A model generated the notes under the pieces. That model saw only the letters and a list, made by a program, of their open reading frames with translations. It did no database searches and was not told the DNA's origin. From a phage, in the NCBI GenBank assembly GCA_037431425.1, contig GCA_037431425.1_4129.2: DNA of 64,000 nt, one strand, 5' to 3'. The translations under genes were made by a program, and so were the position numbers. Positions 47,191-58,393 of the stretch are shown here, piece after piece (the first letter of the stretch is position 1; every line of letters starts with the position of its first letter).

Positions 47191-47814
47191 ATGAGTAGTA
47201 TGATTCGTGAATGGTCTTCATTCAATGATTCTAAAGTTGTTTTGGAACATCGTGATAATGGATTTGGTGGGCGTGATTGCTATCTTCGTGGCATTGCTAT
47301 TCAAGCTGACCAACGAAATTTGAACGAGAGAATTTACCCTTTATCTGAAATTACAAGGGCAGTAAATAACATGAACCAGCGTTTAGCTAAAGGTGAAAGC
47401 ATTCTTGTTGAATGTGACCATCCAGAAACATTAACTATTAATCTGGACCGAGTAGCAGCAATGATTACTAAGGTTTGGATGGAAGGTGCTAATGGTATGG
47501 CAGAAATCAAATTACTTGATACTGCACATGGTCAAAATATCCGTAAAATGCTAGAGGCTGGTGTGAAACTTGGTGTAAGTTCTCGCGGTTCCGGTAACGT
47601 TGATTATAATGGAATAGTTTCTGATTTTGAAATTATCACTATTGATATTGTTGCTCAACCTAGTGCTCCAGAAGCATACCCAACAGCGGTATTTGAATCT
47701 CTGATGAGTAAGTACGGATCACCTTGTAAAAGTTCTAAAAAAATCACTGAATCTAAAAAGGTAAATAACTTAGATTCTGAAATATACGATTTTTTCAAGA
47801 AATTAAAAGGTTAA
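47191..47814 (+). CDS. 21: prohead core protease, gp21-like
   Basis: ECDHPETLTINLDR, GVSSRGSGNVD and DIVAQPSAPEAYP parallel T4 gp21 ECDHPSDLKINLDR / GVSSRGSGTVD / DIVSNPSAPDAYP as recalled. Confidence 0.8.
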   Translation: MSSMIREWSSFNDSKVVLEHRDNGFGGRDCYLRGIAIQADQRNLNERIYPLSEITRAVNNMNQRLAKGESILVECDHPETLTINLDRVAAMITKVWMEGANGMAEIKLLDTAHGQNIRKMLEAGVKLGVSSRGSGNVDYNGIVSDFEIITIDIVAQPSAPEAYPTAVFESLMSKYGSPCKSSKKITESKKVNNLDSEIYDFFKKLKG

Positions 47815-47825
47815 CATTTTAAAAA

Positions 47826-47833
47826 TATAAATA
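47826..47833 (+). promoter_or_regulatory. T4-type late promoter TATAAATA upstream of scaffold gene
   Basis: Exact TATAAATA 48 nt upstream of ATG 47881; overlaps an 11-bp inverted repeat (47829-47839 / 47848-47858). Confidence 0.5.
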
Positions 47834-47880
47834 TCTGTATATTGAAGTACAGATATTTCAGTACTTAAAGGAGAGAACGA

Positions 47881-48996
47881 ATGTCTAAATTAGAAAAGCT
47901 TCTAAAAGAATCATCTCTTTCTGATGAGGCAAAACAGCTAATTCAGGAAGCATGGAATGAAGAAAAGAATACACTAGCCGCAGAGATGCGTGAAGAAATG
48001 AAAGGTCGTTACCAGCAAGATTTGGCTGAACTAACTGAAGGTTTGAATACTATGGTTACTCAAGTCATTGCTGAAGAAATGGGTGCTGTATATGAAGAGA
48101 AAAAACGTCTTGTAGAAGATCGTGTAACTCTACGTAAAACACTAAGTAATTTCTCTGCGTTTTCAAACTCTGTATTGGCAGAAGAAGTTAAACAAATGCG
48201 TAAAGAACGTAAGCATCTTCATGAATGTATGGGTAAATTTGTTAATTTTTCTAACGGTATCCTAGCAGAAGAGCTAAAAGAATTCCACAATGAAAAACGT
48301 CAACTAGTTGAAACACGTGTAAAACTACTTGCTGAAGGTTCACGTCAAATTGCTGAAGCTCGTAATAACTTCATCAAACGTACATCTGAAAGTGCTGCTA
48401 AATATATTGCAGAGACAACTCAGAAGAATCTATATGCGTTAAAACAAGATCTAGTGGAAGCGAAACAAAATATGTTTGGTCGTAAAATCTTTGAAGCATT
48501 TGCTCAAGAATTTAATGTCAAACAATTCAATGAAAATTCATTGCTACGTTCACTAACTGAAACAATTAAATCTAAAGAAGATGAAATTGATCAAGTTAAG
48601 CAAGAACTACATGAAACTGTTAATGCGGTCAAAGCTGCTAAAACTAAACTACGTATTATGGAAGATGCACAAGCCCGTAATGCGATTATGTCTGAACTAG
48701 TAAAACCACTAACAGCACAGCAAAAACAAATTATGGAATCCCTTCTAGCAACTTCACCTACTGAAAAGCTTAAAGAAGATTTCAATAAGTACCATAAGTC
48801 AGTTCTTAACGGTACTAAAGTAAATGAATCTGCTACCACTCGTCAAGCAGTTCAGTCTTCCGCTAAGAAAACTCTTGCAGAAGGTAAAGTAATCACTGGC
48901 AACCGTCAGGCTATTGTTGAAAGCGAAGAAATGACCGCTGACGATATGGCATTCCTAAAAGAACTTGATGTTCTTTCTGGTATCAATAAAAAATAA
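47881..48996 (+). CDS. 22: prohead scaffold protein, gp22-like
   Basis: 371-aa charged protein with heptad-like coiled-coil character; sits between gp21-like and gp23-like genes. Confidence 0.6.
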   Translation: MSKLEKLLKESSLSDEAKQLIQEAWNEEKNTLAAEMREEMKGRYQQDLAELTEGLNTMVTQVIAEEMGAVYEEKKRLVEDRVTLRKTLSNFSAFSNSVLAEEVKQMRKERKHLHECMGKFVNFSNGILAEELKEFHNEKRQLVETRVKLLAEGSRQIAEARNNFIKRTSESAAKYIAETTQKNLYALKQDLVEAKQNMFGRKIFEAFAQEFNVKQFNENSLLRSLTETIKSKEDEIDQVKQELHETVNAVKAAKTKLRIMEDAQARNAIMSELVKPLTAQQKQIMESLLATSPTEKLKEDFNKYHKSVLNGTKVNESATTRQAVQSSAKKTLAEGKVITGNRQAIVESEEMTADDMAFLKELDVLSGINKK

Positions 48997-49034
48997 ATAT
49001 TTTAAAGCATTTTAATAATCAAATTTTTCAGTTC

Positions 49035-49042
49035 TATAAATA
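49035..49042 (+). promoter_or_regulatory. T4-type late promoter TATAAATA upstream of major capsid gene
   Basis: Exact TATAAATA 46 nt upstream of ATG 49088; AAGGAG SD 7 nt before start. Confidence 0.5.
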
Positions 49043-49087
49043 ATAACATACTGAAAAACGAATATAACATCTTTAAGGAGATATATA

Positions 49088-50263
49088 ATGTCACAACTAC
49101 TAAATGAATCCAAATGGGTAGCAGTAAAAGAGAAACTAGTTGAAGGTCTACAGGGTACTCGTAAGTCTGTAATGGAAACTGTTCTTGATAACCATCGTAA
49201 AGTTATGCTAACTGAATCTGCAACTTCTGGTGCAACTACTGCTGGTAACATCGCTACTCTAAACAAAGTGATTCTACCAATTATGCGTCGTGTAATGCCA
49301 ACTGTTATTGCTAACGAAATTATCGGTGTTCAACCAATGACTGGTCCAGTTGGTCAGATTCACACCCTACGTGTGCAATATGCTGATAATGCACCTGGTG
49401 TTATTGCTGGTGAAGAAATGCTTTCTCCATACAAAATTGCAAAATCCTACTCTGGTGAACTAAATTCTGATAATAGCAACCCACAAGCTGCACCTACTAG
49501 TCAACTAGAAGGTACTATGGGTCGTCGCGTAAATATCCGTATCCTACGTGAAACTGTTGAAGCGAAATCACGCCGTCTATCTGCACGTTGGACTGTTGAA
49601 TCTGCACAAGATGCACAATCTCAACATGGTGTTGATGTTGAAGCTGAACTAATGGCAGCAATTGCACAAGAAGTTACTGTAGAAATCGACCAAGAACTAC
49701 TAAGCCGTCTACGTGCACTACCAGGTGCTGCTGCTGTAACTTATGACCAATCTAAAGTTACTGGTGTTGCAACTTTCGTAGGTGATGAACACGCTGCTCT
49801 AGCTACCCTAATCAACCGTCAAGCAAACGAAGTTGCTCGTCGTACCAAGCGTGGTGCAGCAAACTGGGCTGTTGTTTCCCCAACTGCTCTAACCATTCTA
49901 CAGTCTGCAACTACTTCTAGCTTTGCACGTACCACTGAAGGTACTTTTGAAGCACCAACTAACGTTAAGTTTGTAGGTACTCTAAACAGCACCATGCGTA
50001 TCTTTGTTGATACCTATGCAAGTGATTCTGAAGATATCCTAATTGGTTATAAAGGTAATGCTGAAACTGATGCTGGTGTATTCTATTGCCCATACATCCC
50101 ACTAATGGCATCCGGTACTGTTATGGACCCTAACACTGGTGAATTGGTTACAACTTTCCTAACTCGTTATGGTTACGTACAATTGACCGACAGCACTTCC
50201 TCTCTTGGTAACGCTGCTGACTACTATAGCAAAATCGCTATCAAAAACGTTACTTTCATGTAA
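49088..50263 (+). CDS. 23: major capsid protein, gp23-like (compact, 391 aa)
   Basis: LPIMRRVMPTVIANEIIGVQPMTGPVGQIHTLRVQY, VEAKSRRLSARWTVESAQDAQSQHGVDVEAEL and IGYKGNAETDAGVFYCPYIPL parallel T4 gp23 segments as recalled; strongly biased codon usage. Confidence 0.9.
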   Translation: MSQLLNESKWVAVKEKLVEGLQGTRKSVMETVLDNHRKVMLTESATSGATTAGNIATLNKVILPIMRRVMPTVIANEIIGVQPMTGPVGQIHTLRVQYADNAPGVIAGEEMLSPYKIAKSYSGELNSDNSNPQAAPTSQLEGTMGRRVNIRILRETVEAKSRRLSARWTVESAQDAQSQHGVDVEAELMAAIAQEVTVEIDQELLSRLRALPGAAAVTYDQSKVTGVATFVGDEHAALATLINRQANEVARRTKRGAANWAVVSPTALTILQSATTSSFARTTEGTFEAPTNVKFVGTLNSTMRIFVDTYASDSEDILIGYKGNAETDAGVFYCPYIPLMASGTVMDPNTGELVTTFLTRYGYVQLTDSTSSLGNAADYYSKIAIKNVTFM

Positions 50264-50307
50264 TTATAATCGATTTAAAAAAATAATCAAGAAATTAAAA
50301 ACAAAAA

Positions 50308-50334
50308 GGGACTCTGATGAGTCCCTTTTCTTTT
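50308..50334 (+). terminator. intrinsic terminator after major capsid gene
   Basis: Perfect 7-bp stem GGGACTC / GAGTCCC with 4-nt loop, followed by TTTTCTTTT. Confidence 0.7.
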
Positions 50335-50405
50335 ATCTAAATATTGACAAACAGTACTGAAACATGTTATGCTTATGTAAATATAGTAACTATAGAGGAA
50401 TTTAA

Positions 50406-52004
50406 ATGCTTGGTGAAATCAAACAGTTTTTGAAGACGAAAAAGTTAAGAGGTGTAAAATCTGCACTTCAAGCAAAACCATTATATGTTGATTACTTAAA
50501 AGAAATTTATGGTGATATCGAACTGAATGTTATCATTTACATGGTATTGAATGATATTAAAGAAATTCCAAAAGCAAAATGTGGTAACGATGTAAAGTTT
50601 GTTAATTTAATTGAGGGATTCAGTGACAGATGTAATCTACCGTTTCAGGGAAAAAATAAATGTAAAGTTTGTTCTGTAATGATTTCTGAAAAAAGAAAAA
50701 GTACATACAAGAATAAAACTGGGTATGATAATCCCGGACAGAATCCAGACGTTCGTGACAAGATGTCAAGAACTAATATTAATCGTTACGGAACTACTGT
50801 TCCCCAGCAGACCGATGTTGTCAAAAAACGTTCAATTGAGACAAATATTCTTAAGTACGGAGTTGAACATCCCTCAATGTTGGAAGAAAACAAAGAGAAA
50901 CGCCAAAAAACTGTTTTTGAAAAGTATGGTGTAGATAATGTACTTAAAACTACACATAAACGCCTTGAAGAACGTTATATGAATTTCAAGAAAAAATATG
51001 AATATTCTGGAAAATATACATTACTTAGTTCAATTGAAGAGTATGATTCTTCTGTTAATGGTGTTAAAAGTATTCTTTTATGGAAATGTAATACTTGCAA
51101 CAATACTTTCAATAAAGTTGCACCGTGTTTAAGATGTCCTAAATGTGAACCATACTCTTCCAGTACTGAAGAAGTTGAATTATATGAATATATTTCATCA
51201 ATCTATGACGGTGTAATTATCCAGAATAGTAGGAATATTATCACAGGTAATGAGATTGATATTTTCATTCCAGAACTGAAACTTGGTATTGAGTTCAATG
51301 GTGAGTACTGGCACAGAGACGAAGTGCGTGGTAATAATTATCATCAGAGCAAATATATTCGTATGAAGGAAAATGGCAACAAACTTATTACTATATATAG
51401 TAATGAATGGCGTAATAAAACTGACATCGTTAAGCGTAGATTAAAAAGCATTTTAAATACTGATAATAGAGTGTACGCTCGTAAGTGTACTATCGGTTTA
51501 GTTCAGAATGATGTATGTGATGAGTTTTTGAATACATATCATATACAGGGTAAGTGTAGTTCTTCGATTCGCGTAGGTCTGTATTTGGAAACAGAACTTG
51601 TTGCAGTAATGACATTCGGTAAACCAAGATTTAACAAAGAATATGAATATGAACTACTCCGTTATTGTTCCAAAGATACAGTGGTTGGTGGTGCTTCAAA
51701 ACTGTTAAAATATTTCGAAATTACACATGTTCCAAAATCTTTGATATCTTATGCTGATATGAACTGGAGTTCTGGTAATCTATATGAAGCAATTGGGTTT
51801 CAATTTGTTGAAATGACGAAACCTGGATATTTCTATTATGATAAAAAAACAGAAACCACATATTCCAGATACCAATGTCAAAAGCAAAAATTAATATCAA
51901 AGTTTGGATTTCCTAATACAATGACAGAGAATGAAATGACACGATCACTTGGTTATTACAAAATATATGATTGTGGTAATTTAGTATATAAAAAAGAATA
52001 CTAA
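50406..52004 (+). CDS. homing-endonuclease-like protein: repeated K/R-Y-G motifs, CxxC zinc ribbon, PD-(D/E)XK-like nuclease motif
   Basis: Three repeats (TNINRYGTTVPQQ / TNILKYGVEHPSM / KTVFEKYGVDNVLK); WKCNTCNN...CLRCPKC zinc ribbon; IDIFIPELKLGIEFNGEYWH nuclease-like motif; located right after the capsid gene, where T4 carries a seg homing endonuclease. Confidence 0.5.
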   Translation: MLGEIKQFLKTKKLRGVKSALQAKPLYVDYLKEIYGDIELNVIIYMVLNDIKEIPKAKCGNDVKFVNLIEGFSDRCNLPFQGKNKCKVCSVMISEKRKSTYKNKTGYDNPGQNPDVRDKMSRTNINRYGTTVPQQTDVVKKRSIETNILKYGVEHPSMLEENKEKRQKTVFEKYGVDNVLKTTHKRLEERYMNFKKKYEYSGKYTLLSSIEEYDSSVNGVKSILLWKCNTCNNTFNKVAPCLRCPKCEPYSSSTEEVELYEYISSIYDGVIIQNSRNIITGNEIDIFIPELKLGIEFNGEYWHRDEVRGNNYHQSKYIRMKENGNKLITIYSNEWRNKTDIVKRRLKSILNTDNRVYARKCTIGLVQNDVCDEFLNTYHIQGKCSSSIRVGLYLETELVAVMTFGKPRFNKEYEYELLRYCSKDTVVGGASKLLKYFEITHVPKSLISYADMNWSSGNLYEAIGFQFVEMTKPGYFYYDKKTETTYSRYQCQKQKLISKFGFPNTMTENEMTRSLGYYKIYDCGNLVYKKEY

Positions 52005-52023
52005 AATACATTATTGAAACAAG

Positions 52024-52383
52024 GTGGTTTCGGTGTTAACTGTATATATTTTTAAGAAAGAAGAGTACTTAAAGAGTCAGTACTCTAAAATTGAGATTAA
52101 CGTTCCCTATGGAACATTGGTTGGTTATGACGAATCTAGCGAAACCTTGTTTTATAATGATGATAAACTTGACTATAGCATTGATTCATTTATTGAAGAT
52201 ATACTTGATTGTAATACAGAAGATATGTTGTATGAAGAATACTTAGATGCGTACAGAGAACGTATGTCAAAGTTACATGCTGACGCTCCAGTACTAAACA
52301 TTACACAAAAATCTTCTGAATTTGAACCACATAATCCGTTTCAACGTTTAATTGATATTGGTTTAAAATTCACTATTAATTGA
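52024..52383 (+). CDS. hypothetical acidic protein (GTG start)
   Basis: 119-aa ORF starting at GTG; Asp/Glu/Tyr-rich; no motif recognised. Confidence 0.4.
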   Translation: MVSVLTVYIFKKEEYLKSQYSKIEINVPYGTLVGYDESSETLFYNDDKLDYSIDSFIEDILDCNTEDMLYEEYLDAYRERMSKLHADAPVLNITQKSSEFEPHNPFQRLIDIGLKFTIN

Positions 52384-52422
52384 TAGATAAATATCTCCAT
52401 ATTAATGATGGAGATTGAATCT

Positions 52423-52731
52423 ATGTCACAAATATGTTATGTTATCATAAATTCTGCGTGGCCTGATTATGTTAAGATTGGGTTCACATCAAAATCCGAA
52501 ATGACTGAGCGTTTGAGAACATATCAGACAGCTACACCTTTCAGAGATTTTGAGGTATACCATGAGGTGTATTTTGATGATGCACGTTTGGCTGAAAAAG
52601 AAATTCATAAAAGACTAAAGCAAATGAATGCAATTAGACAACCGAACACTGAGTGGTTTAAAATGTCTAAAAAGATCGCCGCAAACATTATTGACTCCAT
52701 AAGGGATGATATGGATAATGATATGTTATAG
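52423..52731 (+). CDS. T5orf172 / GIY-YIG-like domain protein
   Basis: CYVIINSAWPDYVKIGFTSKSEMTERLRTYQT...EWF matches the T5orf172 pattern (YVY...KIG.T...R...); start set at ATG 52423 with GGAG SD 9 nt upstream. Confidence 0.55.
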   Translation: MSQICYVIINSAWPDYVKIGFTSKSEMTERLRTYQTATPFRDFEVYHEVYFDDARLAEKEIHKRLKQMNAIRQPNTEWFKMSKKIAANIIDSIRDDMDNDML

Positions 52732-52771
52732 GAATAAATATAGTATATATTAATCATAAAGGGATTTATAC

Positions 52772-54385
52772 ATGAGCATAAGTTTTAATAACCCACTGGA
52801 TACAATGACCAGTACTGGTGCTAATGGTTCTTTGGAACTAATAGTGCTTGGTGGTACACCAACTAACCCAAGACCTATTCGTTTTAATTCATCATCAGTT
52901 ATTATGCCAGTAAAAACATTACCGACTGGTGAACAAGGTGCAATGGTTTTTGATAGAAACGAATTAGTGTTAAAGTATCATAATGGTACTAGTTGGATTG
53001 CAATATACGACAATGATACTATTTTAGAACCAATTAGGGTTTCGTTGGATGAAGTAAACAGAAAATTAAACTTAAAGGTTGAAAGTGTAACATACAGTAG
53101 TAGTTCTGTTCCAAGTGCAAGTATCAGTGGAACAAACTTAAACATCGTATTCCCTACTGTTTCTAGTGGTGGTGGTTCAGGGCCAACTGGCCTTTATACT
53201 TCACTTAAACCTGGTGTTATCACACAGTACGCATTGACTTCTGGTCAAAACGTTGCTAGTATACGTGAACAAATGTCTGGACAAACCAATGGTCAAAATG
53301 GACGAAATGGTTCGCAAGCTGCTCCATGGAAAACATCAGATGGATGGTGCTTTGCTGATGGTATGTGGTGGCAATGGGAAGGTGAAAATGGCACAGTTAC
53401 TAAACAAGTACCAAATCTTAACAGAAACGCGTATTTAAAAGGGATATCCACATCAGGGGTAACCAAAACGGATAGTGTTATTGGGAGCAGTGGTAACATT
53501 AGCGGAACTGTTTTGAGTGTAGCACAATTGCCTTCACATTCATTTAGTTTTAGCGGAAGAACTGATGCTGCTGGTCGCCACAGCCATAGTCAAGCACTAA
53601 AAGGTATGGACCGAAGTGGTCTAAATGCGTTAACATCAAGTAATGATAACGGTATACCAACAGTAATTAGTAACATTAATGAAGCACCAGACCATGTTCA
53701 CTCATTTAGTGGAAACACAAACACACTTGGTGGGAATCAGCCACATTATCATGGTATCAGTAATGTTGATGTTGAGCACTTTAACGTGGCATATTTATAT
53801 AACATTGCAGAATCAAACGTAGCACTGAGTGAAAAAGTAGCAAATACGCGTTATGTACTGAAATCAGGTGATACAATGACTGGTTCTTTAACTATTGCCA
53901 ACAGTGCATCTATTAAGTCTAATGATACATCATTAGTTCTATATTTCCGTAACGCAAGCGGCGGTGAACGTGCGGCTGTTTACCATAATTCATCAAACAA
54001 CACGTTGCGATTACGTTCCGGTGGTGCTGAAGTAGCAGTAAACTCTTCAGGTAACTTGTCTGCTCCTTCATTAACTGTTTCTAATAATTCAGCTACTGTT
54101 GGTGGTAAAAATATTGTTCGCACTATCAATGGTACAGCGGCTGATGGTAATGGTAATGTTTCATTGCAAATTAATTCGAATAACGTACAAAGTATTCGTT
54201 TGAGTGCAAGAATTGAAACAAGTAAAATTCCAGATTCTTCATGGACATACGCACCTGAAGGTGCACTCATGGATGGTGTATGGATTTCAGTGAACGGTAG
54301 TTCAGGAACTCATTTGGAACGTATTAGCTATCGTTATATTCAAATGCAGGTAAATGGCAATTGGGAAACGGTACGACAACAATAA
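52772..54385 (+). CDS. tail fiber protein with His-rich (HxH-type) C-terminal region
   Basis: AAGRHSHSQ, APDHVHSFSG and NQPHYHG motifs resemble metal-binding HxH motifs of T-even fiber tips; followed directly by a chaperone-like gene; ATAAATAT late-type motif upstream. Confidence 0.55.
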   Translation: MSISFNNPLDTMTSTGANGSLELIVLGGTPTNPRPIRFNSSSVIMPVKTLPTGEQGAMVFDRNELVLKYHNGTSWIAIYDNDTILEPIRVSLDEVNRKLNLKVESVTYSSSSVPSASISGTNLNIVFPTVSSGGGSGPTGLYTSLKPGVITQYALTSGQNVASIREQMSGQTNGQNGRNGSQAAPWKTSDGWCFADGMWWQWEGENGTVTKQVPNLNRNAYLKGISTSGVTKTDSVIGSSGNISGTVLSVAQLPSHSFSFSGRTDAAGRHSHSQALKGMDRSGLNALTSSNDNGIPTVISNINEAPDHVHSFSGNTNTLGGNQPHYHGISNVDVEHFNVAYLYNIAESNVALSEKVANTRYVLKSGDTMTGSLTIANSASIKSNDTSLVLYFRNASGGERAAVYHNSSNNTLRLRSGGAEVAVNSSGNLSAPSLTVSNNSATVGGKNIVRTINGTAADGNGNVSLQINSNNVQSIRLSARIETSKIPDSSWTYAPEGALMDGVWISVNGSSGTHLERISYRYIQMQVNGNWETVRQQ

Positions 54386-54391
54386 GGAAAT

Positions 54392-54907
54392 GTGCAAATG
54401 CAACTAACTAATTTTAAGATGTACGATAAAGAAGATGGAAATCCAAATTCTTTGTATATGATGTCCGATGAAGGCATGGATTGGTATGAATCTCGTGGTC
54501 TGTTTGACATTAACAAAGCCAAATTTATGTATGATGCCAATGGATTGATAGTTTCTGCATCATATGACATTTATGATCTAGTACCTTTGGGGTTTAGTGT
54601 TTCTGAAATTGAGTACGATGGTGACGTTAACAAACTTTATGGTATGATTTATGATGGTAAAACTATCAAGGAGTATGTAGAAACCAAAGAAGAAAAGATT
54701 GAACGTCTTAAGATTGAATTGGAAAAATTAAAATACTCTGCAATTCAACAGCTTGGGCATTTGAAAACAGCTATGGATCTTGAGTTAGCATCAGATGAAG
54801 AAGCTGTATTGTTTGCAAAATTAAAAGAGTATGTAACACAATTGTCGTCAATTAAACCAGTAGATATGGTCAAAAAAACATTTTCATTTCCAGTCAAACC
54901 TGAATAA
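54392..54907 (+). CDS. tail fiber assembly chaperone (Tfa-like)
   Basis: C-terminus ASDEEAVLFAKLKEYVTQLSSIKPVDMVKKTFSFPVKPE resembles the conserved C-terminal motif of the tail-fiber-assembly family; immediately downstream of a fiber gene. Confidence 0.5.
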   Translation: MQMQLTNFKMYDKEDGNPNSLYMMSDEGMDWYESRGLFDINKAKFMYDANGLIVSASYDIYDLVPLGFSVSEIEYDGDVNKLYGMIYDGKTIKEYVETKEEKIERLKIELEKLKYSAIQQLGHLKTAMDLELASDEEAVLFAKLKEYVTQLSSIKPVDMVKKTFSFPVKPE

Positions 54908-54944
54908 AAATTGAGACAGCACTGAAATGTATGATACAATTTAG

Positions 54945-54980
54945 TCATCTCACCAGCGGTGGTGAGGTGACATTTTTTTC
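54945..54980 (+). terminator. intrinsic terminator after fiber/chaperone pair
   Basis: 10-bp stem with one mismatch (TCATCTCACC / GGTGAGGTGA) followed by cat + TTTTTTT. Confidence 0.55.
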
Positions 54981-55004
54981 AAAACAAACATGGAGAAATA
55001 CAAA

Positions 55005-55307
55005 ATGGCTAAATCCAAAAAAGAAGTTAAAGTTGAAATTCGTGATCTAAACGATGAACAGCGTAAACGTCTCGGTGATGCACTTAACAACATCGTAGTC
55101 CAACTAACTTTTATCGATGATACTAAAGCATCTTTATCTGATTTTGTTTCTAGTGTTTCAGACGAACTTGGTATTGATGCATCCGATATCAAACAAGCGG
55201 CACAACGTATGTACAAAGGTGATTACTTTGACAAACAAAGTAAACTAGATAATATTGAAACTATTCTAAGTGTTACCAACAATCTTCCACAAGCAGACGA
55301 TTACTAA
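55005..55307 (+). CDS. hypothetical protein
   Basis: Start set at ATG 55005 (MAKSKKEV..., GGAG SD 9 nt upstream); track ORF begins 15 nt earlier without SD; followed by a terminator. Confidence 0.45.
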   Translation: MAKSKKEVKVEIRDLNDEQRKRLGDALNNIVVQLTFIDDTKASLSDFVSSVSDELGIDASDIKQAAQRMYKGDYFDKQSKLDNIETILSVTNNLPQADDY

Positions 55308-55331
55308 TTTGTAATAAAAATATATTAAATT

Positions 55332-55358
55332 GCCTCCATGGACGGAGGCATTATTTTT
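55332..55358 (+). terminator. intrinsic terminator upstream of DNA polymerase gene
   Basis: GCCTCC-atggac-GGAGGC stem followed by ATTATTTTT. Confidence 0.65.
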
Positions 55359-55387
55359 AACTTAATAAACGTAAGGGAATACTAACG

Positions 55388-58300
55388 ATGTATATCGATG
55401 CTTATATGGAACGTAAACGTACTGGTGATATTCTTCATGTTGTTGAACGTAAAAATGGTAAACGTATTCTACGTGAATTAGATCCAGTATATGAATATTA
55501 CGTTGAATCTCCCCAAGGTACACACAAAACTGTGTATGGTACAATGGCTAAACATTTTGAGTTTCAAACACAAGCTCAAATGAATAAAAGTGTAGAGCAG
55601 CACAAAAGTGAAGGTCTACGTATTTTTGAAAGTGATTGTAACATTACATTTAAAACACTAGCAAAAGAATATATGGGGAAAGGCTCACCGGACTTGAATA
55701 TTGTTTTCTTCGATATCGAGACTGATTTCCATAAGAAATTTGGCTATGCCCCGCCATCAGACCCATTCAACCGTGTAACAGCCATTTCCCTATATCAATC
55801 ATGGACCGGAAAAGATTATGTACTTACTTTACCACCTGATGATATGGAAATTTATGAAGCACAGGACATTGTTCGTAAACTAAATGAAGAAACAAACGAT
55901 CCTAACAGTACTGTAATTCTATATACAGACGAAAAGGAAATGTTTATGGAATTCTTTAGTTTAATTGATGATTCTGATATTATTTCAGGATGGAATAGTG
56001 AATTCTTTGATATTCCATATATGATCAATAGAACTAAAAAAATCTTCAATGAAGCAACAACTGCACGTTGGTGTTTGTGGAATAAAAAACCAACTTCGCG
56101 TGAAGCCGATAACTTTGGAAAAATAGTTCAAACTTATGATCTGATTGGTCGTGTTCATCTTGACTACTTGGCATTGTATAAAAAACATGCTGGTCAGGTT
56201 GAACAATCTTATAAACTGGATTATATTGCAGAAAAAGTAACTAAAGAAAATAAAGTATCATATGAAGGTTCACTAGATAAACTTTACAGAGAAGATTATA
56301 TTACTTTCTTACGATATTCCAAACAAGATAGCATTCTACTTAAAAAGATTGATGCAAAGTGTGACTACATCAACCTGCACAATCGCCTGGCACATAAAGA
56401 ATGCGTTCTTATTAGTACAACAATGGGTTCTGTTGCACTTATTGACACAGCTATTATTAACTTAGCACATGCACGTGGTGAAGTTGTTTTTAACAAAGCA
56501 CCCAAAGATGATGTTGAGTTTGATCCTGAAATGGAATATTATGGTGAAGATGGAATTGATGGAGAAGAGAAAATCAGTGCAAAAGCAGCAGGGGCATGGG
56601 TACAAGATCCAGTACTAGGACTTGTGAGTGACCTTGGGTGTACTGACTTTAACTCACTTTATCCTACTGTCCTACGTACTTTAGGTATGAGTACTGAATG
56701 TATTCTTGGACAACTACGACAAGATTACACAGATGCGTATCTTGCAGCTAAAATCCAGGAACAGAAGAGCAAATCTAAATCAAAATCATTTGAACCTGAT
56801 TGGACTGCTGCATGGCATGGTTTGTTTGCCGCAGTAGAGTTTACAATGGTCCATGAAAAGTCAGAAGAAACATTGATTGTGGACTTAGAAGATGGTAGTT
56901 CCTTCAAAGCAACTGGTAAGGAACTATATGATATTATTTTTGCAGAAGATAGCACGATTGTTCTTAGTGCAAACGGAACATTGTTTGATAAATCTAAATC
57001 AGGTGTAATTCCAGATATTCTTACACAATGGTATTCTGAACGTAAAGCCCAGCAAAAAATGGTTATTGATTACAAACATATGTGTACGGATGGCTGGGAG
57101 TTTAATGGTCATGAAAAAGTTGAACCATTGCTATCCAACTATACACATGGAACTATGTTTAGAACCAATATCCATGATAACGATCCAGTATACTTACTTC
57201 GTAAAGAAATTGGTAAAGGACAATGGGATGAAGTTGCTAAGTTGATTGTTGAAAACGGCTTAATCCTAAAAGAAGGTCGCATTTTTTGTCCAAACGAAGA
57301 AAAAGAGTACTTTAAACAGCGTAGTGCTTTCTGGAAACAGAACCAACAGATTCGTAAAATTCTTCTAAACAGTCTATATGGTGCACTATTGAACAAAGGT
57401 TCTCGTTTCTTTGATAAACGTTTAGGTCAATCTGTTACATTAACTGGTCGTTCAATGACTAAGCACATGGCAAGTCGTATCAATGAAATCACAACTGGTG
57501 AATATATCCACCACGGTGGTTCTGTAATTTACGGTGATACTGACTCCGTTTACTTTAGTGTGACACATTATCTGAAAGAACAAGGCATCCCATATAATTT
57601 ATCAAAAGAAGAAATTGTTGATATGTATATTAAAATTGGTGAAGAAGTTGGTGAATCTTTCCCAACATTTATGCATGAAATGTTCAACACTGGTATTGAA
57701 AAAGGTAAGATTGTCGGTGCAGACCTTGAGATGGTTGGTTCCCGTGGATTATTCTTGAAGAAAAAACGTTATGCAATCTTGAAGTACTGGGAAGATGGCT
57801 TCCGTAAAGATATTGATGGTAAACCCGGTGAAATCAAAGCAATGGGTCTTGAGATTAAACGTTCAGATACACCAAAATACATCCAGAACTTCCTAGAAGA
57901 GACACTAATTGCACTACTGGTAGGTGAGAGTGAACAGCAATTAAAACAGCGTGTACGTGCTTTTAAAGATGTATTTAAGGACATGCCAGTATACGAAAAA
58001 GGATCACCAAAAACCGTAAAAAATTACACTAATTTAGAGGCAGAATATCAACTAACTGGTAAGTGTAAGGTTGGTCATGTTCTTGCTGGTATTCAATGGA
58101 ATCGTCTTCGTGAAATTTATGATGATAAAACAGTACCAGAAGTAACTGATGGAACAAAAGTGATTGTCTGTAACTTAAAAGATAACCCTATGGGAATTAA
58201 AGCTGTTGGTTATCCAATTGACTGTGTTGAGTATCTTCCAGAATGGTTCTTGGAATTACCATTTGATACTGAAAAAATGGAAGAGATTGTCCTGACTAAA

Positions 58301-58393
58301 AAATTAGAGAATATTTTTGGTATTTTAGATATGGATATTGGTATTCATGAAAAAAGTACTGCATCAGTAAACAATGGATTCTTCACTTGGTAA
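55388..58393 (+). CDS. 43: family B DNA polymerase (gp43-like)
   Basis: Exo I FFDIETD; motif A DFNSLYPTV; motif B KILLNSLYGAL; motif C IYGDTDSVYF; 1001 aa. Confidence 0.9.
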   Translation: MYIDAYMERKRTGDILHVVERKNGKRILRELDPVYEYYVESPQGTHKTVYGTMAKHFEFQTQAQMNKSVEQHKSEGLRIFESDCNITFKTLAKEYMGKGSPDLNIVFFDIETDFHKKFGYAPPSDPFNRVTAISLYQSWTGKDYVLTLPPDDMEIYEAQDIVRKLNEETNDPNSTVILYTDEKEMFMEFFSLIDDSDIISGWNSEFFDIPYMINRTKKIFNEATTARWCLWNKKPTSREADNFGKIVQTYDLIGRVHLDYLALYKKHAGQVEQSYKLDYIAEKVTKENKVSYEGSLDKLYREDYITFLRYSKQDSILLKKIDAKCDYINLHNRLAHKECVLISTTMGSVALIDTAIINLAHARGEVVFNKAPKDDVEFDPEMEYYGEDGIDGEEKISAKAAGAWVQDPVLGLVSDLGCTDFNSLYPTVLRTLGMSTECILGQLRQDYTDAYLAAKIQEQKSKSKSKSFEPDWTAAWHGLFAAVEFTMVHEKSEETLIVDLEDGSSFKATGKELYDIIFAEDSTIVLSANGTLFDKSKSGVIPDILTQWYSERKAQQKMVIDYKHMCTDGWEFNGHEKVEPLLSNYTHGTMFRTNIHDNDPVYLLRKEIGKGQWDEVAKLIVENGLILKEGRIFCPNEEKEYFKQRSAFWKQNQQIRKILLNSLYGALLNKGSRFFDKRLGQSVTLTGRSMTKHMASRINEITTGEYIHHGGSVIYGDTDSVYFSVTHYLKEQGIPYNLSKEEIVDMYIKIGEEVGESFPTFMHEMFNTGIEKGKIVGADLEMVGSRGLFLKKKRYAILKYWEDGFRKDIDGKPGEIKAMGLEIKRSDTPKYIQNFLEETLIALLVGESEQQLKQRVRAFKDVFKDMPVYEKGSPKTVKNYTNLEAEYQLTGKCKVGHVLAGIQWNRLREIYDDKTVPEVTDGTKVIVCNLKDNPMGIKAVGYPIDCVEYLPEWFLELPFDTEKMEEIVLTKKLENIFGILDMDIGIHEKSTASVNNGFFTW

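Follow-up and report, generated by a model that had tools for sequence, protein, structure and literature searches.

A probable Hef-type homing endonuclease gene in a contested slot behind the major capsid gene of a jumbo coliphage, beside a conserved block with a gp098-type tail fibre

We analysed a stretch of phage DNA of 64,000 nucleotides (the window; NCBI GenBank assembly GCA_037431425.1, contig GCA_037431425.1_4129.2) and within it the five genes at positions 50,406 to 54,907, which lie between the gene for the major capsid protein and that for a B-family DNA polymerase. The first of these genes, encoding a protein of 532 amino acids (aa), is very probably a free-standing homing endonuclease gene of the Hef type that sits in a contested slot, and the four genes beside it form a conserved block. 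An earlier note on this DNA had taken all five for one accessory island, in which homing-endonuclease-like genes are combined with an extra tail fibre and its chaperone. All the open reading frames (ORFs) it listed are present and its family assignments hold; for annotation, the supposed island comes apart as a core block and, next to it, a single selfish gene. The locus joins known kinds of element, namely a Hef/EDxHD homing endonuclease in a contested slot and a gp098-type fibre with a swappable tip and a Tfa chaperone.

Over positions 49000-56000 the window matches Escherichia phage ph0011 (Asteriusvirus, 348 kb) in megablast with 99.7% identity over the full length, and about 70 further RaK2-like jumbo phages give partial matches. 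Judged by these matches, the window is part of a 121Q/PBECO4-type Asteriusvirus jumbo coliphage. Amino-acid identities across genera come from comparing the window with RaK2, Munch, CBB, fHe-Yen9-04 and XaC1. The features at and around the slot are as follows.

49088-50263: gp23-type major capsid gene, the upstream flank (Pfam Gp23, E = 5.5e-90)
50304..50329, + strand: intrinsic terminator of the major capsid gene, a strong hairpin (GGGACTC..GAGTCCC) followed by a T-run
~50344..52019, + strand: putative inserted homing-endonuclease cassette of ~1.68 kb, made up of a promoter-like site, a ribosome-binding site, the Hef-type gene and a short tail
50344..50373, + strand: sigma-70-like promoter candidate in the cassette (TTGACA, 18 nt, TG-TATGCT), by consensus match only
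50406..52004, + strand: predicted Hef-type (Vsr-like, EDxHD) free-standing homing endonuclease, 532 aa
51456-52001: predicted Mom-like GNAT domain of the 532-aa protein, residues 351-532

The 532-aa gene is patchily present at a fixed site beside a conserved gene, and close relatives have an empty allele. The terminator of the capsid gene, already recognised in the earlier note, is invariant in alignments of 7 phages and marks the left edge of a variable slot, which is empty in PBECO4, CBB and fHe-Yen9-04. At the empty site of PBECO4 the terminator is followed by ATCTAAATA and CACATAGGTGAC and then directly by the start of the next gene; the sequence that the window has in common with it is ATCTAAATA to the left of the insert and CAAGGTGG, CA(T)AGGTG, to the right. 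The cassette borders were set by this comparison and are approximate; in nucleotide alignments the left one comes directly 3' of the terminator and the right one at the ribosome-binding site of the next gene. A search of both borders for flanking direct repeats, target-site duplications and terminal inverted repeats found only short chance repeats, none of which pairs the two borders, as expected for insertion by recombinational repair and not by transposition. The promoter candidate matches the consensus at 10 of 12 positions and has an extended -10 TG; TTGACA/TATAAT-like elements also stand ahead of the other slot occupants and are absent from the empty site.

Which genes compete for the slot? 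A Hef-type gene is found there in the window and ph0011 (532 aa), in UE-S1 and in one metagenomic contig (66% aa identity), the proteins of ph0011 and UE-S1 being 66% identical to each other. In 121Q, A4 and Turkey3 the slot holds a gene of 365-368 aa, and in G17 and Munch a version of 304-307 aa; the 121Q-type occupant is unrelated to the 532-aa protein by BLASTP. Pfam searches of the 121Q gp604-type occupant give treble-clef zinc fingers (DUF4379, DUF723, CapR) and then a weak, sub-threshold T5orf172-like C-terminus, and the slot of RaK2 holds ORF095, a 408-aa 'endonuclease' with zinc fingers of the same kind. Zinc fingers followed by a T5orf172 end are the canonical architecture of T5orf172 homing endonucleases (Barth et al, PMC10448857). 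The long form of this rival (121Q gp604, L002 4411-5508; 365-368 aa) and the short form (G17, L004 4398-5321; Munch, L007 10376-11290; 304-307 aa) were seen to differ by one N-terminal zinc-finger module and to be 66-70% identical elsewhere, in agreement with the reported gain and loss of modules in T5orf172 endonucleases. Among the 24 closest Asteriusvirus records, one is of the Hef type (ph0011), ~8 have the long T5orf172-type gene, ~9 the short one and ~6 an empty slot, a split read from matched span lengths with four cases verified directly. In T4, SegD adjoins gene 23. Homing endonuclease genes (HEGs) are known to cluster near capsid genes, 31% of T5orf172 HEG neighbourhoods containing one (PMC10448857).

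The protein itself belongs to a large family. It matches phrog_3339 'homing endonuclease' (E = 8.4e-136) and Pfam DUF7487, and this match and the presence/absence polymorphism of the slot bear out the earlier suggestion of a homing endonuclease inserted by the capsid gene. Homologs occur in 424 phage records by tblastn, many of them annotated Hef or 'Hef-like homing endonuclease'; annotated homologs are found in Campylobacter phages (10-12 copies per genome), Dickeya LIMEstone1 (F-LimVIII), Bacillus AR9 and T4-like phages. At least 1974 homologs (E <= 1e-10) are present in a large protein database. Those in the phage database are in many cases from large phages, often with several copies per genome. 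Within the 64-kb window the gene has no paralogs; outside it, the ph0011 genome has at least two more of the Hef type, one of which (P0009, 664 aa) is 35% identical. Neither the six proteins nor three relatives had a match in NCBIfam. Phage Hef-type endonucleases were placed in the EDxHD family by Taylor et al, 2011 (PMC3239194), and Hef of phage U5 is described as an endonuclease that cleaves nrdB (PMC2988022).

From its N-terminus the 532-aa protein comprises a helical region, DUF7487 repeats (residues 87-200), a zinc ribbon (224-247), a Vsr-like nuclease domain (253-350) and the Mom-like GNAT domain (351-532). The repeats, five in number and helical, and the Cys4 ribbon that follows them form a putative DNA-binding region. 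An alignment of 48 homologs confirms the zinc ribbon and the PD-(D/E)XK-like motif that the earlier note had picked out: C228, C231, C244 and C247 of the ribbon are invariant or nearly so, as are E283, D285, E296, H303, H313 and K316 of the nuclease block, and many more such positions lie in the C-terminal half. The catalytic domain has a Vsr-like nuclease fold with a diverged PD-(D/E)XK core. Three of the five positions of the EDxHD motif (I-Bth0305I E170, D196, N208, H213 and D222) are matched, in that D285, N298 and H303 align with D196, N208 and H213; D285 is present in 47/48 and H303 in 48/48 homologs, and N298 is placed by pairwise alignment only. At the position of D222 the protein has His313 (47/48) and not Asp, the equivalent of the N-terminal Glu (E256/E258) is not invariant, and the invariant E283 and E296 are additional to the motif positions.

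Is the Hef-type gene still mobile? We infer mobility from its distribution and family. Its six closest homologs (98, 66, 66, 52, 50 and 46% identity) all follow gp23 directly, in genomes or contigs of RaK2-like phages with capsid proteins 77-100% identical to that of the window. ph0011 and UE-S1 have identical capsid proteins and polymerases that are 97% identical, and their Hef proteins are different at 34% of residues; the N-terminal and repeat regions have diverged most (54-59% identity) and the nuclease domain least (84%). Such fast divergence of a putative DNA-reading part fits a homing enzyme in which this part tracks the target. When a related phage without the gene infects the same cell, the enzyme would, as its family suggests, recognise a long target by means of its N-terminal repeat modules, and its Vsr-like nuclease domain would cut the rival genome within the conserved capsid-gene end of the locus or close to it. 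Repair by recombination would then copy the cassette, together with flanking markers, into the broken genome. In other relatives the unrelated zinc-finger/T5orf172 endonuclease gene contests the same slot.

Some observations weigh against this interpretation. The GC content at third codon positions (GC3) of the Hef gene, 23.6%, is that of the core genes, and although its total GC of 31.2% falls into the lowest 4% of sequence windows, low total GC with a core-like GC3 is no mark of recent or foreign origin, and composition is uninformative on this point. The synonymous divergence between the Hef alleles of ph0011 and UE-S1 is 48%, near the 37-53% of the right flank, which leaves room for vertical descent with fast protein evolution and repeated loss. 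The gene would then be an old vertical resident that was lost or replaced in many lineages and is now decaying or domesticated and no longer mobile; its GC3, the flank-like synonymous divergence and the occurrence of same-slot homologs out to 77% capsid identity, with a divergence that scales roughly with that of the host genomes, agree with such a history. We nevertheless consider it unlikely. The ORF is not truncated, none of the family's 27 invariant and 38 nearly invariant residues has been lost, its structure model is well folded (predicted local distance difference test, pLDDT, 91.7), and the gene has a promoter-like site and a ribosome-binding site of its own. Moreover, ph0011 alone among the 24 close Asteriusvirus records has the gene, two other states of the slot are common, and unrelated endonuclease genes in an identical slot are the classic picture of competing homing genes.

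Two further observations concern the flanks of the slot. Towards the 3' end of the capsid gene, at 50160-50225 (alignment A3, columns 200-265), clustered synonymous multi-nucleotide changes, among them switches of serine codon family (AGC/AGT to TCN), occur in an otherwise ~99% conserved protein and are followed by ~40 invariant bases. We considered this patch as a homing target or immunity signature and rejected it, as its haplotypes do not segregate with the slot occupant and no target can be called. When four-fold degenerate sites of the window are compared with those of 121Q/PBECO4/G17 (47191-58393), the divergence steps up across the slot: the genes for protease, scaffold and capsid have 5-17%, those from the 116-aa ORF to the polymerase 30-47%; with Turkey3 the step has the same direction and is weaker. 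This step fits the notion of 'nuclease genes at boundaries of genetic exchange', although codon bias of the highly expressed head genes may contribute and the pattern is suggestive only.

The C-terminal half of Hef-type endonucleases is, as judged from predicted structure and sequence, a GNAT domain like that of phage Mu Mom. For the C-terminal 180 residues, the top Foldseek match is 8bv8 (E = 7.8e-7), phrog_1384 matches with E = 1.5e-8 and Pfam Mom matches weakly, so that residues 351-532 have a GNAT fold with Mom (family PF25680) as the closest structure. A profile alignment, itself weak (hhalign probability 4%, E = 0.01), pairs H58, R111, D149 and Y159 of Mom with H379, R419, D451 and Y460, and in the 48 homologs H379, R419 and Y460 are invariant or nearly so and D451 is present in 40/48; the essential S124 and R151 of Mom have no clear equivalents in it. 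All four paired residues of Mom have been reported to be important or essential, R111 (R101 in other numbering) being described as specific to Mom within GNATs (PMC13219725, PMC7261163). Many, not all, Hef-like proteins have the domain, judged by length coverage. One GenBank record names a homolog 'putative nuclease/acetyltransferase protein', and a literature search for a Mom/Vsr/GNAT fusion or a link between Hef and Mom found no paper.

The Mom-like domain may bind DNA, dimerise the enzyme or modify DNA. We regard it as improbable that the Hef family, with its at least 1974 proteins, consists of two-enzyme proteins in which a Vsr-like nuclease is joined to a catalytically competent Mom-like GNAT that marks DNA. 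If this were true, the marked DNA could be the element's own target, giving self-immunity as in a restriction-modification pair, or the broken end, and the C-terminal domain would not be an inert module for DNA binding or dimerisation. Similarly doubtful is the related proposal that the 532-aa protein is not mainly selfish and could take part in conflicts between phages or between phage and host, for instance by cleaving competitor or host DNA that is unmodified and marking its own. The resemblance of the last 180 residues to Mom (Foldseek 8bv8, phrog_1384, weakly Pfam Mom) and the near-invariance of H379, R419, D451 and Y460, which align with the Mom active site, argue for two activities; the low confidence of that alignment (hhalign probability 4%, E = 0.01) and the missing clear counterparts of S124 and R151 argue against them, and the domain could serve DNA binding or dimerisation only. 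The family is also distributed like homing genes, with many copies per genome, beside conserved genes and patchily. A homing endonuclease thus remains our preferred description of the protein, and its Mom-like domain provides a cheap, testable lead on how such elements recognise or protect DNA.

The four genes that follow the cassette would be an ancestral, vertically inherited block of RaK2-like jumbo phages. The block and its right flank contain the following features, after which the identities to the window across genera are given.

52033..52383, + strand: conserved small acidic ORF, 116 aa, phrog_15724, first gene of the conserved block
52423..52731, + strand: stand-alone T5orf172 (GIY-YIG-like) domain protein, 102 aa
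52772-54385, + strand: tail fibre, whole gene, 537 aa, phrog_13229 'tail fiber protein' (E = 1.9e-263)
52772..54166, + strand: conserved N-terminal attachment and shaft of the tail fibre, residues 1-465, ortholog of RaK2 gp098
54167..54385, + strand: exchangeable C-terminal tip of the tail fibre, residues 466-537
54392..54907, + strand: tail fibre assembly chaperone of the Tfa / Mu U / P1 U family, 171 aa
54944..54971, + strand: intrinsic terminator of the fibre/chaperone unit, a 12-bp stem followed by a T-run
55388-58393: B-family DNA polymerase gene, the downstream flank

T5orf172 protein (no RaK2 ortholog): 65-75%
Fibre residues 1-465: 48-57%
ORF of ~100 aa between the chaperone and polymerase genes: 32-70%
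Polymerase: 63-81%

The Asteriusvirus relatives, Munch (Salmonella) and CBB (Pectobacterium) share one gene order: capsid, slot, small ORF, T5orf172, fibre, chaperone, ~100-aa ORF, polymerase. RaK2, fHe-Yen9-04, XaC1 and a metagenomic relative have the same order with gene-for-gene variation: RaK2 has a 244-aa ORF in place of T5orf172 and no chaperone gene, the ORF after the fibre gene of fHe-Yen9-04 is not a recognisable Tfa, and XaC1 has two extra small ORFs. A GTG at 52033, preceded by the Shine-Dalgarno sequence AAGGTGG, is the most likely start of the small acidic ORF, and all its relatives have ATGTTAACTGTA there; the ORF listed in the earlier note is real, with 116 aa and not 119. At this start codon (52024-52035), which stands at the cassette junction, all the relatives examined have ATG and the window and ph0011 have GTG. 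The ORF follows the slot directly in all Asteriusvirus relatives (82-86% aa identity) and is 47% identical in RaK2 and weakly similar (24-31%) in CBB, Munch and XaC1; fHe-Yen9-04 and loci L014-L016 have an ORF of similar size there, with no significant match.

The nuclease domain of the T5orf172 protein is clear (Pfam PF10544, E = 3.9e-13; 50.2 bits against a cut-off of 20), the orthologs start with MSQICYV, which sets the start at 52423 as previously listed, and residues of the GIY-YIG type (Y12, K24-x-G26, R36, E64 and E83-W84) are invariant in 8 orthologs. Of three features of a T5orf172 homing gene, however, only the nuclease domain is present. The domain takes up residues 10-99 of 108 in the Pfam match, with no DNA-binding domain attached, whereas 87% of T5orf172 HEGs carry CapR, DUF723 or a related treble-clef zinc finger (written DUF4397 there; PMC10448857), and the distribution is not patchy: a single-copy ortholog occupies the same position in ~64 jumbo-phage records at 60-100% identity, and only RaK2 and two metagenomic relatives lack it. 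The protein is 65-75% identical in Munch, CBB, fHe-Yen9-04 and XaC1, where the polymerase is 63-78% identical. As a conserved, single-domain protein that lacks a DNA-binding domain it is not the product of a mobile endonuclease gene, as the earlier note had assumed, and is best regarded as a stand-alone nuclease-like protein, either ancestral or domesticated. T4 endonuclease II is a stand-alone GIY-YIG enzyme, and a role akin to it for the T5orf172 protein is speculation by analogy. At the same position RaK2 has ORF097 (L009 5214-5948; 244 aa), with no tblastn match to the T5orf172 protein and no Pfam match, one metagenomic relative has a 300-aa protein with no T5orf172 match (L014 2427-3329), and in another the position is vacant (L015 6651-7043); these replacements indicate that this position, too, turns over in more distant lineages.

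The tail fibre carries HxH motifs, as its earlier description as a His-motif fibre had it, with H325-x-H327 invariant across genera. Its body matches RaK2-like phages only, and in RaK2, CBB, fHe-Yen9-04, XaC1 and Munch it always lies between the capsid and polymerase genes. With 49% identity over residues 1-465 and the same flanking genes, it is an ortholog of RaK2 gp098. That protein, identical to S2-8 of phiK64-1, is present in virions and essential for infection, antibodies to its C-terminus lower the plating efficiency, and immunogold labels mainly contracted particles; its authors concluded that it serves as secondary receptor-binding protein of the baseplate, outside the long branched fibres (PMC10253068). 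[quoted passage not shown] Two points count against a transfer of this role to the window: the putative baseplate function depends on an ortholog that is only 49% identical, and in Asteriusvirus phAPEC6 the counterpart gp221 is absent from the text and from the examined part of the virion table (PMC7247149). The match of gp221 to the fibre is by gene order, between the major capsid protein gp225 and the Tfa gp220.

The C-terminal tip behaves differently from this body. It is alignable in close relatives only (92% to 121Q, 74% to UE-S1) and is replaced by other types in Turkey3, RaK2, fHe-Yen9-04 and XaC1, and residues ~419-537 are 34-46% identical to tips of fibres from unrelated ~145-kb myoviruses. 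Beyond about residue 465 the fibre alignment shows no fewer than three tip types. The first, that of the window and 121Q with more distant versions in A4, CBB and Munch, is followed by a chaperone gene of the Tfa type or another; the second, in RaK2 (L009 6001-7785) and Turkey3 (L008 5269-6975), has no chaperone gene downstream. The third, in fHe-Yen9-04 (L011 6001-7632) and XaC1 (L012 6001-7836), ends in DIWAFSD(I/E)RLKENI-type sequence, which we take to be of the auto-cleaving intramolecular-chaperone (peptidase S74) type. A4 was seen to have two different chaperone genes. In the window the chaperone gene starts 7 nt past the fibre stop codon, and its assignment as Tfa-like is upheld by a match to Caudo_TAP PF02413 above the Pfam threshold (E = 2.6e-9; 37.7 bits against a cut-off of 22.1) and by phrog_136 (E = 1.6e-36). 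It is 87% identical to its counterpart in 121Q, 83% in UE-S1, ~50% in TH47 and fEgEco12 and 28-32% to Mu U and P1 U. The homolog in phAPEC6, gp220, was not found in virions, as expected of a chaperone (PMC7247149). Tip and chaperone identities fall together, from 92/87% to 121Q to 74/83% to UE-S1, and both are absent or replaced in Turkey3, RaK2 and A4. The tip matches in unrelated myoviruses and the way the chaperone type follows the tip indicate that horizontal exchange is real and limited to a tip-plus-chaperone module. Within the conserved block, the tip with its matching chaperone would thus be passed horizontally, the usual route of host-range change in such phages, and the proposal of a horizontally acquired host-range cassette stands for the last ~70 residues of the fibre and for the chaperone, while the fibre body is core-like.

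That the whole of 50406-54907 is one acquired accessory island, with two mobile endonuclease-like genes and an extra fibre/chaperone cassette, can be set aside as highly improbable: the stretch does lie between two core genes, is bounded by terminators, contains two nuclease-like genes, has a variable fibre tip and chaperone and holds its fibre far from the main cluster (~230 kb in RaK2; PMC10253068), but four of its five genes stand in the same order in relatives, also where the slot is empty, conservation of the T5orf172 protein is close to that of the polymerase (65-75% and 63-78%, respectively, in Munch, CBB, fHe-Yen9-04 and XaC1), the fibre is not extra, its RaK2 ortholog being essential (PMC10253068), and target-site duplications, for which the earlier note had advised a search, are lacking. 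Of the marks of a horizontally acquired island, namely variability of the whole block, deviant composition and insertion scars, none was found, the first gene alone being variable. The earlier note had itself named, in advance, a gene order conserved among relatives or a core-like conservation of the fibre gene as evidence against its proposal, and we find such an order for the four genes and such conservation for the fibre; the accessory reading survives for the 532-aa gene only.

Some elements at the margins of the block deserve mention. Terminators are annotated in G17, UE-S1 and Munch at the place equivalent to 54944-54971. The conserved ORF of ~100 aa between the chaperone and polymerase genes (54990-55307) matches phrog_639 'transcriptional regulator' (E = 1.5e-7) and has a terminator of its own at 55331-55350; its counterparts by position in two metagenomic relatives give weak matches to Phage_DsbA (PF11126), and its product may be a double-stranded-DNA-binding protein like T4 DsbA. 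The T4-type late-promoter motif TATAAATA occurs at 47826-47833 and 49035-49042, ~50 nt upstream of the starts of the scaffold and capsid genes; none is found on the + strand within 50264-55400, so none stands ahead of the fibre block, and across the window the motif is not enriched (6 found, 10 expected).

What follows for the reading of such genomes? The fibre at 52772-54385 should be read as the counterpart of RaK2 gp098, likely a secondary, irreversibly binding receptor protein. A gp098-type fibre that is likely receptor-binding is relevant to engineering the host range of therapeutic Asteriusvirus phages, for which the tip and its chaperone would be a natural swap unit. The capsid slot, at which phages of ~90-99% identity elsewhere have at least three allelic states, offers a clean natural system for testing how unrelated homing endonucleases compete in jumbo phages.

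Finally, the locus can be set beside the systems it resembles. The 532-aa protein is homologous to known Hef-type endonucleases (U5 Hef; LIMEstone1 F-LimIII, VII, VIII and X; Campylobacter phage Hef) over 50-93% of its length at 29-43% identity, and it is encoded, like them, by a free-standing gene that is patchily present in an intergenic gap beside a highly conserved essential gene; it differs in lying behind the major capsid gene of RaK2-like jumbo phages and not in nrd genes or a recA intron. This type and the EDxHD prototype I-Bth0305I have, like it, a nuclease fold of the Vsr kind, and catalytic Asp, Asn and His residues that align with its own. Where I-Bth0305I has NUMOD/HTH (helix-turn-helix) modules, an Asp at the fifth motif position and no C-terminal counterpart, the window protein has DUF7487 repeats with a zinc ribbon, His313 and a Mom-like GNAT domain. 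Mu Mom, a GNAT-fold, glycyl-tRNA-dependent enzyme of adenine hypermodification, is the best structural match of that domain, which in its model has extra sequence at the site of Mom's insertion between the last GNAT strands. Unlike Mom, however, the domain is fused to nuclease and DNA-binding modules and has a sequence identity to it of only ~16%; adenine hypermodification is known for Mom, whereas the window's domain is known from comparison. As in the intronless homing of T4, where segH or hef replaces mobC or mobE, unrelated endonuclease genes share one intergenic slot and an empty allele exists too, the homing of the window gene being, in contrast to that in T4, a prediction from sequence comparison.

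The conserved block has known relatives as well. The window fibre is the positional ortholog of RaK2 gp098 and phiK64-1 S2-8, and it differs from gp098 in its C-terminal tip and in the Tfa chaperone gene downstream, which RaK2 lacks; a location at the virion baseplate has been seen for RaK2, and the fibres of the window and of Asteriusvirus are known here from their genes. In Mu (S/U), P1 (S/U), P2 (H/G) and lambda (Stf/Tfa), as in the window, a chaperone (Caudo_TAP in the window) is encoded directly downstream of the fibre gene, and tip and chaperone change together between lineages. In contrast to the Mu/P1-type modules, the window locus has no invertible segment, and in contrast to all four systems its module is joined to an N-terminal fibre body specific to jumbo phages.

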